Shown piece by piece: positions 17,707 to 58,336 of a DNA stretch of 64,000 nucleotides. Numbering within the stretch: the first letter of the stretch is position 1; every line of letters starts with the position of its first letter. The notes beneath the pieces are model-generated. The model was not told where the DNA came from. It searched no databases and saw nothing but the letters and a program-made list of their open reading frames with translations. The stretch lies in contig OX597832.1 of NCBI GenBank assembly GCA_951406725.2, positions 7,068,001 through 7,132,000 on the forward strand. Direction: 5' to 3'. The stretch is from Octopus vulgaris (taxonomy: Eukaryota). The translations under genes were made by a program, and so were the position numbers.

Positions 17707-17818
17707 AAACTGAAAGTATGAGAGGGGAATTCCATTTGTAAAGCTGAAAGCACGAGAGGGGAATTCCATTATAGAACAGAGATACGAAAGGGGAATTCCA
17801 TTTGTAAAACTGAAAGTA
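17707..17818. promoter_or_regulatory. Tandem NF-kB-site / IRF-element-like array 1 (3 units)
   Basis: GGGGAATTCCA at 17724, 17758 and 17790, interleaved with AAACTGAAAGT, AAGCTGAAAGC and AAAACTGAAAGT. Regulatory function is inferred. Confidence 0.6.
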
Positions 17819-19369
17819 TTTTCGGGGCAAATGCACAATATTTTTGAAAAATATTTTCCGGATTCCTACGTCTTAGATGTCGGAGATTACGAACATGCAA
17901 AAAAAAAAAAAAAAAAAATTAAATTTCAACCACTCTCCCCCCAATTTAAAATTTTGATTTTGTTTACTTTAAAGAGATTGTAGCGAATTGACGAACATAT
18001 GCAAATCGAAATTAAATATAGACAAAAACATTAAAGTGAAAAGTATTTGTTTTGTACTTGTGTTTGCCTTAGATAATCGTAAATAATTAAATGTAAACTA
18101 AATATGCACCATTTTATGAGAAACAAACCTTAACATGTTTAATAACTAATGTTATAAAGTTTATCTATCTATCTATCTATCTATCTATTAGCTAGCTAGC
18201 TAGCTAGATAGATAGATAGATATGGCTGTCATCCTGGGGCTAAAAACAACAGTAACACCGTCCTCTATAGCACCGCCACATTATTTGGCAAATATATTTG
18301 ATAGCTAGCTACCTACCTACCTATTTCTTTACTACCCACAAGGGGCTAAACACAGAGAGGACAAACAAGGACAGACAAACGGATAAAAGGAAAAGTTGAC
18401 CTCGGCGGAATTTAAACTCAGGACGTAGCGACGGGCGAAATACCGCTAAGCATGTCGTCCAGCACGCTAACGATTCTGCCATCTCGCCGCCTTTGCACCT
18501 TAACATTAATAATAATAACATTGTTAGTCAATCGGTTAAATATCTAACGAACTTACAAATCCATCGCTTGTCTACATATTTATAGTATAGTAATACAACA
18601 GGGTAACGCCGTTAGCAGATGTTAGGATGATAAAGGTGGAGGATGAAATACTGTAACTGAATAAATTAAAGGAAGTTAGAAGTTAAAAGAAGTTAAAAAC
18701 AAAATCTCAAAAATCGATTAAAGGAAAAATGCTAAAAGAAAAAATTTTTTTTAAAGTTAATTCTAGAACAATTCCCCAAACCTCAAAATTCCCAAAATAT
18801 CTAAAAAGAAAAAGAAGAACAAAAATTCGTGTTTCAGAGTTTTATGGTTTAAGGATTTTACAGATTTAAAGTTTTAAAGTATAAAAAATAATTTTGAAGT
18901 TTTGAAAGGGTAGAAGTTTTGGATCAAGAAACCCACAAAAGTTTTGATGGCAATTTTTCCAATATTTTATCACCACAACCATCAGGATGGTGGGGAGCAT
19001 CTTTTTAATAAAAATAGTTTTGATAATTTTTAATTTTGTTACTAATGAATGAATGAATGTCATTGTTCAGTTTTTATTTCAAGAGTGCTTGCCAATAGTG
19101 AAAGAGCCGGTTTCTAACCTAGACACAAGGCTCCTTCATTGGAATTGCAACATCAACAACAGGGTATGTATGTATGTATGTATGTATGTATGTATGTATG
19201 TATGTATGTATGTATGTATGTATGTATGAATGTATGCATGCATGCATGTATGCATGTATGCATGCATGCATGTATGTATGTATGTATGTATATGTGCAGA
19301 TTTGTATGTTTTGCTTTATGTATGTATTCTCATGCATATAATTGCGTATCTAGAGATGCTCATATATGT

Positions 19370-19628
19370 TTAAATGATAAACTTTTGGAAAGTTTTACCG
19401 ATTTTTACTGTTCCAGTGATGGATTGGATCTGTAGTCTTCGAATTAGCTTCCTCCTTTCTGGTTTTGAGAAGTCTAATTTCTCAAGATTGGTATTTAGGC
19501 AGTGTGTTGCATATGCCAGGGTCCCAATAATTACAGGCATAAATCCGAGCTTGTAATCTGGATAGAGTAACAGTAGATTTCTCAATAGCTCAGTGTAGGT
19601 ATTCTTTTTTTCACTGATCTTCGGCTTT
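19370..19628 (-). mobile_element. RLE-type non-LTR retrotransposon C-terminal fragment
   Basis: K..TYTELL...PVIIGTL...LQIQSITGTVKI pattern typical of restriction-like endonuclease C termini. Confidence 0.6.
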
Positions 19629-56800: not shown

Positions 56801-57481
56801 GCATGGCCGCAGTCAAATGACTGAAACAAGTAAAAGAGTAAAAGAGAGAGAGTAGCACTTTTAATCCAACCTCAATTTTTTAGTGGGTCGGTAACCCAAT
56901 TTTTGAATGGAGGCGAGTCGGTTGTTAAGCAAGGGTGGGGGAACAAACACAGACATACAAACATACACAAACACATAAATATATAATCTCCGTATTTTTC
57001 CACGTAGATTGAAAAGAAAAATTCGAAAACGAGTTAAAAATTAAAAAATTTTAAAAACGTGTTTTTTTTTTTTTTTTCATATTGGAATCTCCGTCATCGA
57101 AAACATAGGAATCCGGTGCGGAAAAAAAATCGGAAAGGTTGGTTCCGGGGTTAGGGGTGACTGTGCACCAGGTTCGCCAAACAATGTTAGTTGAATTTTC
57201 AGAGTGAAGAATTATTTTGAGATTTAGCATGAAAATATAAGGCACTTGTGTCCTTATTGAAATTTACGGTAGAAAATAGTTTTAGTTAAACGTCTTAAAA
57301 GTTAGATGATATTTATAAAATCAAATTAAGTCTGTAATCATATGTGTTCCTTTTCATCCTTATACATATATATATATATATATATATATATATATATATA
57401 TATATATATATATATATTCGTATAATGTGTGCGTGCATCAGAAATTCTCACTGTATTTAAGGATCCCATATTACAAATGTT

Positions 57482-58336
57482 CTACGGTTCAAACTTCAGT
57501 TGTTTAGTCAATGTCGACGTAATTTGAGGCATTTGTTTATATTCATTGTATGCTGAATTGTCCGGAATCCGGAAGCCTAAAGAGGCAACGTACTTAGAGA
57601 CAGCGGTTAAAAGTGTCATGATTTCATGTTCAGTGCCATAATACGTCAACATTTTACTTAGAGTTTGCATAAACCACGAGCCTCCTTCTTCATTTTCGAA
57701 AGAAGGATATTTATCACACGATGAATAAGCAACCAGCATATCTGCCATAATTGGAATTTTGGATGACGTTTTTTCAAATCCATAGGAAGCAACATCATTT
57801 TGTTCGACCCCACAATCCATTTTACTTCCTCGGCATGCTTGAATAAAGAATAATTTAGGTATTCCTTTTAAACATGGACAACGATCGGGTCTCAGATAAG
57901 AAAGTAATTTCTCTAGTTCAGTTTTATCGTCGTATCCATAGATTAGACCTTCTGAGTCACTACAACTTAGTATTGCACAAATAAAACAATCAGAATCAAT
58001 ATCAGTATTATCTTTGCCAAACCTTTGCAAAACCCCGATCATCTCTTCGGTACTTAAATCTGTATTAATATGGATATCTTCTTCCTGTAATCCAAGACTT
58101 ATTAATGCCATTTTAAAATCTTGTGTGTCTTTTGATGATCCACCACAAGTTGTAAGTTCCGAGTGTCTGAAAGTTTCATTGTTGAAGATGTAGGCGACAC
58201 CTCGCTTTTTATGTGTCATATCATATTTATCGAAGCATTTCAATAGTTCTGCTTTGGTTTGTCGGTCGTCGAAATGGTCGCCTGTACTGTCACTCCGTTT
58301 TCTCCTTTTTTCGGGTACGGCATCCATGTCAGTCAT
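57482..58336 (-). CDS. Caspase-3/7-like paralog, copy C, predicted pseudocaspase (catalytic His lost), 284 aa from first ATG
   Basis: Intact ORF. First ATG at 58336 (MTDMDAV) aligns with copy B MTTMDAR; the track start at 58387 is a TTG. QACRG is kept, SHG reads SCS, TRYG reads TCGG, SYR reads SFE. Confidence 0.92.
   Translation of the reverse strand: MTDMDAVPEKRRKRSDSTGDHFDDRQTKAELLKCFDKYDMTHKKRGVAYIFNNETFRHSELTTCGGSSKDTQDFKMALISLGLQEEDIHINTDLSTEEMIGVLQRFGKDNTDIDSDCFICAILSCSDSEGLIYGYDDKTELEKLLSYLRPDRCPCLKGIPKLFFIQACRGSKMDCGVEQNDVASYGFEKTSSKIPIMADMLVAYSSCDKYPSFENEEGGSWFMQTLSKMLTYYGTEHEIMTLLTAVSKYVASLGFRIPDNSAYNEYKQMPQITSTLTKQLKFEP

Follow-up and report, generated by a model that had tools for sequence, protein, structure and literature searches.

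Probable retained pseudocaspases in a five-gene effector caspase array of Octopus vulgaris and the kB-type site arrays beside them

Caspase decoys are already known from vertebrates, nematodes and Diptera. For the last group, Bryant et al. reportedly dealt in 2010 with the Aedes pair CASPS18/CASPS19 and with dipteran caspase-like decoys. In Aedes aegypti, CASPS18 is reported to be an inactive duplicate of an effector-type caspase, to act as an enhancer of CASPS19 and to be tied to infection responses (PMC4840389, PMC3141678, PMC7768685). In Caenorhabditis elegans, the caspase homologs CSP-2 and CSP-3 were reported to inhibit apoptosis; in the same report, CSP-3 is without an active site, CSP-2 has the motif VCCRG, and the csp-3 phenotype was not reproduced (PMC3591282). 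Here, five caspase genes that share one orientation and form an array, C-B-A-D-E, on contig C19 of the 2.8 Gb genome of Octopus vulgaris are compared with these systems. Genes A, B and C lie in the analysed stretch of 64,000 nucleotides, G000:C19:7068001-7132000 (hereafter the window, to which all positions without a contig name refer), while genes D and E lie to its left.

The window is AT-rich and dense in microsatellites and pieces of transposable elements. An earlier note on this DNA had pointed out three co-oriented, uninterrupted caspase frames, and the listing of open reading frames (ORFs) together with the Pfam search confirmed them: gene A at 20578-21405 (-), 275 aa, gene B at 42908-43747 (-), 279 aa, and gene C at 57482-58336 (-), 284 aa. 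All three frames are open, have their coding region in a single exon on the minus strand and carry Peptidase_C14 (PF00656) as the sole Pfam domain, with no death-fold prodomain and no CARD or death effector domain (DED). Among solved sequences, insect caspase-1 and caspase-3/7 come closest to the cluster caspases. With p20, p10 and a short prodomain, A, B and C belong to the effector-type caspases (Peptidase C14A). However, they do not make up the three-gene module that had been proposed. A scan of C19:6968001-7192000 placed them in a five-gene array, within a genome-wide expansion of 71 matches; gene D (L003, G000:C19:7061920-7062753) is located ~6 kb and gene E (L007, C19:7039210-7040010) ~29 kb left of the window.

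The catalytic residues were read from the sequence motifs, with R179, Gln283 and Arg341 given in caspase-1 numbering. Gene A has R179, SHG, QACRG and SYR (His114/Cys157, Arg54 and Arg203 in its own numbering; linker VEKTD/A), in agreement with the full dyad and both S1 arginines ascribed to it before, and the active site of D is likewise intact. Pseudocaspase B has R179 and SHG, with EASRG in place of QACRG and SFI at the second S1 arginine; the loss of its Cys had been recognised correctly, whereas the losses of Gln283 and Arg341 had been missed. Pseudocaspase C has TCG, SCS, QACRG and SFE, which bears out the earlier description: its His is replaced by Cys, both S1 arginines are gone, and QACRG is present. 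In E, the Cys is replaced by Ser (EASRG), and the His and both arginines are retained. The His-Cys dyad together with both S1 arginines is found in A and D and is incomplete in B, C and E. A, B and C are thus three members of a five-gene array with two intact (A, D) and, judged from these residues, three dead genes (B, C, E), the latter being predicted to be enzymatically inactive. The earlier note had also called B and C complementary, which does not hold. Both the His and the Cys of a caspase sit in p20 of one protomer, and because they share this subunit, B and C cannot complement each other in trans.

By analogy, the Aedes CASPS18/CASPS19 decoy is the closest precedent, and c-FLIP-L and CSP-2/3 are more distant. 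Like CASPS18, the octopus B, C and E are effector-type duplicates in which critical residues have been substituted. However, Aedes has one decoy per paralog, while the octopus would have three, with three different lesions, in one five-gene array, along with gene conversion that spares the dead loop and a homotypic cluster of kB-type sites; moreover, it is a mollusc and not an insect. The array resembles c-FLIP-L/caspase-8 in having a tandem-derived pseudocaspase beside an active paralog, which c-FLIP-L is reported to regulate by heterodimerisation. Unlike c-FLIP-L, which carries DEDs in tandem and targets an initiator at the death-inducing signalling complex, B, C and E are without a death-fold prodomain (by Pfam for B and C) and fall within an effector-type clade; the N-terminal tandem DEDs characteristic of c-FLIP were absent from the Pfam scan of A, B and C. 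Unlike CSP-2 and CSP-3 with CED-3, the octopus proteins are full-length, comprising p20 and p10.

The literature searches revealed neither a described cephalopod caspase decoy nor this cluster, although subscription papers and unread supplements could contain a description. In the supplement of a study describing tandem caspase expansion in oysters, O. bimaculoides proteins of the cluster and the orthologues of A, B, C and E from O. sinensis are entered as 'CASP3/6/7 like' (PMC11543851); its main text contains neither 'decoy' nor 'pseudo' and leaves the dyad losses unremarked. In their accessible parts, two papers on cephalopod caspases mention no decoys (PMC9389742, PMC4199593), and the O. 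vulgaris mucus proteome names caspase-3/7-like proteins (PMC11431876). As Octopus annotations label the cluster genes caspase-1/3/7, expression and proteome papers may count dead enzymes as apoptosis markers.

In the phylogenetic tree (41 rows, 13 of 54 having been omitted, namely 12 copies from contig C5 and the L021 fragment), each cluster gene pairs with one O. sinensis and one O. bimaculoides protein, with support of 98/98 for A, 85/94 for B, 100/99 for C, 100/100 for D and 100/98 for E. The O. bimaculoides orthologues show the same lesions: P0002 (B) has QASRG and is without the second Arg, P0011 (C) has SCG and is without both Arg, and P0009 (E) has EASRG. At the His position of C, the O. 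bimaculoides orthologue has Cys and that of O. sinensis Tyr. O. vulgaris and O. bimaculoides split ~34 million years ago according to a preprint (bioRxiv 2023.05.16.540928), and on this comparison B, C and E had lost their catalytic residues before the split. Judging from tandem position and the tree, B, C and E arose by duplication of an active caspase. Assembly errors, raised earlier as a possible source of the substitutions, are excluded by independent contigs and by the same losses in the named orthologues: the Ser codon of B was unchanged in independent contigs of sequencing runs, and the His-replacing codon of C was unchanged in one run guessed to be DNA.

It is highly improbable that B or E is now a Ser-His hydrolase, or that C works with a Cys-only site and a new specificity. 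In either species, B and E do retain the His next to the Ser that has replaced the Cys, and C keeps QACRG, with Cys at the His position also in O. bimaculoides. However, a Cys-to-Ser change is a standard inactivating one and is reported to abolish the killing by CSP-1B (PMC3591282), and the Tyr in O. sinensis C indicates that Cys is not required at the His position.

The analysis of constraint was based on core columns defined from 20 outside caspases. The core identity to the O. bimaculoides orthologues was 77.9% for A, 81.5% for B, 72.0% for C, 85.3% for D and 80.2% for E; B and E are therefore conserved no less than the intact A. A, B and C each lie ~3% of residues away from their O. sinensis orthologues. 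The variable columns numbered, in the core vs the rest of the protein, 2/73 vs 43/170 for B, 4/72 vs 64/171 for C, 2/73 vs 46/170 for E and 3/73 vs 51/171 for A, and the substitutions avoid the core with p 5e-6 in B, 4e-8 in C and 1e-6 in E, just as they do in A. The chance that a neutral frame stays stop-free in both lineages, counting substitutions and not indels, was 0.066 for B, 0.011 for C and 0.053 for E. In the paralog branch model, the ratio of nonsynonymous to synonymous rates (dN/dS, omega) of B was 0.40, which is below 1 (p=0.005). For C, structure prediction yielded a complete caspase fold (predicted local distance difference test 78), with caspase-7/3 as the top PDB matches. It had been argued that B and C stayed open while the transposable-element ORFs nearby were broken. 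The latter do contain stops and frameshifts, but they make a poor neutral yardstick, since the mariner piece has one stop and looks young.

Contigs cover B in all four runs (three RNA by guess and one of unclassified kind) and end 520-590 bp 5' of its ATG, while C is covered end to end in both runs guessed to be RNA, with ends 220-260 bp 5' of the ATG. A likely 5' leader of B extends over 43748-44335 (-), the contigs of the four runs ending at 44270, 44270, 44319 and 44335, and that of C over 58337-58599 (-), with the contigs of the two RNA-guess runs stopping at 58557 and 58599 and that of the DNA-guess run extending to 58664. Run X8 covers B and not C, but a gap in contigs carries no weight. 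Several isoforms are annotated for the O. sinensis orthologues of both genes. B and C are likely transcribed, which answers the earlier question about their expression in part: contigs from RNA-guess runs cover both, but the RNA status is a guess. Because orthologues carry the same losses, the core is constrained and contigs cover B and C, we regard B, C and E as retained pseudocaspases; B and C are likely transcribed ones and neither assembly errors nor fresh pseudogenes. A pyrimidine tract with AG just 5' of the ATG is conserved in the paralogs of contigs C19 and C28 (21406-21470, 43748-43800 and 58337-58400) and suggests an intron in the 5' untranslated region. No splice joint was seen in the contigs over the B and C stretches, which leaves both an acceptor just 5' of the ATGs and a first exon common to A and B unsupported.

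The comparison of A with B revealed no synonymous differences at 60 sites in codons 57-154 (A numbering), where 11 were expected from flank divergence; the 5' flanks of the two genes differ by 18%. Codons 57-154 of B have, on this evidence, been homogenised with A by gene conversion, and the tract stops at the strand preceding the catalytic Cys. Sixteen residues follow the gene across species, 15 of them located at position 154 or later, whereas seven follow the species, four of them located at 55-134. Exchange between A and B may thus be permitted within the p20 scaffold but opposed by selection wherever it would restore the activity of B or abolish that of A. C and E, whose synonymous divergence from A and D is 0.32-0.44, bear no mark of recent conversion. 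The A/B conversion makes the core test weaker for B and leaves it unaffected for C and E. The pair is also a natural experiment, with near-identical p20 scaffolds of opposite catalytic status, in which the question of whether the dead protein regulates the live one is directly testable.

The reading to which we give a probability of about one half is that B, C and E have been kept as caspase-like decoys that pair with A and D and tune them, and that A, perhaps also B, is switched on via the kB-type sites. Effector caspases are constitutive dimers, and the cleaved linker of the partner helps to build each active site. An upstream caspase would cut the conserved VExxD linker of the decoy, which would then lend its loop to the partner, yielding a dimer with one working site that sets the level of activity; the decoys may raise or lower the activity of A and D. 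As alpha5, beta6 and the linker Asp are conserved in all ten sequences listed, B and C are plausible dimer partners of A or D. Being without S1 residues, they would act via the dimer face, and substrate trapping would be ruled out for them. E, with its His and both arginines and no Cys, could be a natural Cys-to-Ser trap for substrates or inhibitor of apoptosis proteins (IAPs). B, C and E are likely to regulate A and D, and immune control through nuclear factor kappa B (NF-kB) is possible.

The earlier note had considered the pseudocaspases as baits for pathogen caspase inhibitors. This suits B and C poorly, since without S1 residues they would be poor baits for substrate-like inhibitors; only E retains both arginines. 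In a broader form, B, C and E could be functional yet not pair with A or D; they might take up IAPs or pathogen inhibitors as sinks, occupy the initiator caspase as competing substrates via the linker Asp, or serve as scaffolds, all of which we consider unlikely. The three share the linker Asp with their orthologues, E still has His and both Arg, and the loops L1, L2 and L4 are fast, with nonsynonymous to synonymous ratios among paralogs (pN/pS) of 1.54, 0.96 and 0.98 vs 0.36-0.69 in the scaffold segments, which is what a conflict with pathogens would produce on such surfaces. Fast loops are, however, also predicted by relaxed constraint, the conserved dimer face fits homodimers and heterodimers equally, and B and C are without the S1 residues that suicide-substrate inhibitors need.

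Several points weigh against B, C and E being decoys that tune A and D. The tree support for B is moderate (85/94). The branch omega is 0.74 for C (p 0.30) and 0.75 for C and E together (p 0.15), in models with six of the genome's paralogs and B excluded, and neither value is separable from 1 or from the background; the family-wide omega is ~0.6. C differs from its counterpart in the coded organism A by eight nonsynonymous and two synonymous changes, approximately a neutral ratio, and conversion from A could preserve the core of B without selection on B. None of the 20 listed contig sources is recorded as RNA, which is no evidence either way, the RNA status being a guess. Finally, the 1.2 kb upstream of each of B, C, D and E contain no exact kB site, which leaves co-induction of the decoys unsupported. 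As regards the dN/dS check suggested earlier, the branch omega from paralogs is below 1 for B, but for C, and for C with E, it is inseparable from 1.

The family omega, the values for C and E and the 8:2 ratio of C would suit birth-and-death leftovers under relaxed selection, which have acquired no stop yet and among which the frame of B was refreshed by conversion from A. Conversion between A and B is demonstrated, and the family does lose copies, e.g., the frameshifted copy L021 on contig C28 and an emptied A-like unit described below. We nevertheless consider such an origin quite improbable, as substitutions in C and E strongly avoid the core columns with no sign of recent conversion in either gene, the frames are open in two lineages, and the dead site of B persists beside a conversion tract able to repair it.

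The regulatory part of the decoy reading is based on the 10-mer GGGGAATTCC. The earlier note had counted ten invariant sites in three arrays, and this was confirmed: they are distributed 3 + 4 + 3, at 17724-17799, 22268-22377 and 41092-41165, all on one strand. The kB consensus is GGGRNWWYCC, which GGGGAATTCC fits. Array 1 (17703-17818, +) contains three sites and is located 2779 bp 3' of A and ~23 kb 5' of D. The four sites of array 2 (22255-22378, +) lie 863-972 bp upstream of the ATG of A. Array 3 (41071-41165, +), a paralog of array 2 with three sites, lies 1743 bp 3' of B; its sites are unchanged relative to array 2 despite the 77% identity of the surrounding block. The idea that the arrays were co-duplicated with B and C had to be abandoned, as they flank A or lie 3' of B, none is located 5' of B or C, and C is at least 16 kb from the nearest one. 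The IRF-type (interferon regulatory factor) label did not hold either: the AANNGAAA core, a half-site, is present in six of the ten units at a background of 2.7 per kb, and the full interferon-stimulated response element (GAAAN1-2GAAA) occurs 0 times in the three arrays.

The ten sites are copies of one 32-34 bp tandem unit, and because of this common descent the shuffle test, with a mean expectation of 0.05 for GGGGAATTCC, is an unsuitable null. The minimum number of changes is 35 in 24 spacer columns vs 0 in 10 kB columns (Poisson 5e-7, the motif having been picked after it was seen). The paired-site pattern has eight matches genome-wide, seven of them at this locus, vs 0 in the control; the 23-base unit occurs six times here and once elsewhere with three mismatches, equal to the control. 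Single or paired kB sites, but no clusters, were found at 30 caspase loci taken with flanks of 1.5 kb and in 18 other stretches of 10 kb that bear caspases. Selective retention of the 10-mer, specific to this locus, is supported by these sequence patterns. A is the only gene with consensus kB sites that are clustered, constrained and close to its start, and array 2 is likely a promoter-proximal enhancer of A; it is also a compact candidate NF-kB reporter for cephalopod immunity. Array 3 may now serve B or the cluster, because its sites are unchanged though the coding exon of its unit is gone. Arrays as transposon ends, i.e., dispersed, many-copy and inverted, were rejected, the unit being present at this locus only and all ten sites lying on the same strand.

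For this regulatory part only, it is possible, though less likely than not, that the arrays are a local minisatellite or sites of another factor and that the cluster is controlled otherwise, in development, senescence or skin turnover. The origin of all ten sites from one unit and the background level of the IRF match would agree with this, and the literature searches gave no induction data. Moreover, a different 28-bp repeat at G000:C4:26380009-26380100 and 26382935 (L048), in a 240-bp inverted duplication with copies 2.7 kb apart at 96% identity, has three GGGGAATTCC of its own, and the ORF list for 20 kb around it contains no long frame. On the other hand, the 10-mer fits the kB consensus and is the only part of the unit without changes, the unit does not form a dispersed repeat, and array 2 lies less than 1 kb upstream of A. 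For O. vulgaris haemocytes, genes of the NF-kB pathway have also been reported (PMC4199593).

A more elaborate version of the decoy reading would be an NF-kB-inducible switchboard, in which the fast-evolving A and D are tuned by a Cys-less partner, a His-less partner and a substrate or IAP trap, conversion keeps the p20 scaffolds matched while selection holds the catalytic loop of the decoy dead, and a kB enhancer that a gene deletion had left orphaned has been co-opted to co-induce B. We regard this combination as doubtful.

The emptied unit between A and B is a remnant of a duplicated A unit at 37763-42091 (-), within which array 3 is situated. Pieces of the 3' flank of A are present at 37763-37845 and 38595-38646 and the 5' flank at 39622-42091, in order. 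Neither tblastn nor nhmmer found caspase coding sequence between these flank copies, and a fourth caspase between A and B was discarded. A dispersed-repeat fragment at 21887-22160 separates the proximal flank of A from array 2; it has 514 candidates in the genome, and 37 of the 40 that were scored match its first ~130 bases only. As a dispersed repeat, this block was rejected as a promoter common to all cluster genes.

The genome search with A yielded 71 matches, with clusters on contigs C19, C28, C5 and C26. Among the best 30 of the 71 loci, 25 retain His and Cys, four are open without one or both (B, C, E and L019), and one is frameshifted. Eight further ORFs, one of which is L019 again, include five without the dyad, on C7 (two), C5, C20 and C28. 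Dyad losses therefore recur at several loci, and pseudocaspases are recurrent in this genome. The clade is Octopus-only among the named matches, with an identity of at least 45% (at least 48% in a second search) vs ~41% or less for named non-Octopus caspases.

Open caspase-domain frames without both His and Cys are located at C7:8758502, C7:8760797, C5:76010827 and C20:19886600; a relative of the C7:8760797 protein, P0021, has the identical EASRG motif. The sister cluster at C28:6286771-6378981 and C28:2999593 comprises about a dozen caspases with the motifs QTCRG, EACRG and ATCRG, as well as frameshifted copies (one being L021) and a dyad-less open frame at 6313691. Beside it, near 6384814 on the minus strand, lies a 680-aa open frame (L057) that presumably resembles a Penelope-type reverse transcriptase. 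About 22 tandem effector-type matches occupy C5:54146362-54521221 (L015-L030); those read are dyad-intact, the second S1 Arg is replaced by Lys or Glu in three copies, and their clade is separate from the C19/C28 genes. A tandem cluster of divergent single-exon caspases with 19 matches lies at C26:33701654-33813913 (L058-L061). Those read have SHG and the motif NTC[QE], and one that was scanned has a weak N-terminal CARD.

Among the transposable elements of the window, a mariner-like transposase frame at 62900-63921 has a single internal stop and is probably a young insertion. Fragments of reverse transcriptase from long interspersed nuclear elements at 14000-15126 (-) and 59490-60312 (+) are broken by a stop and a frameshift. 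A 336-bp inverted repeat of 98.5% identity at 32396-33220 is possibly a young miniature inverted-repeat transposable element.

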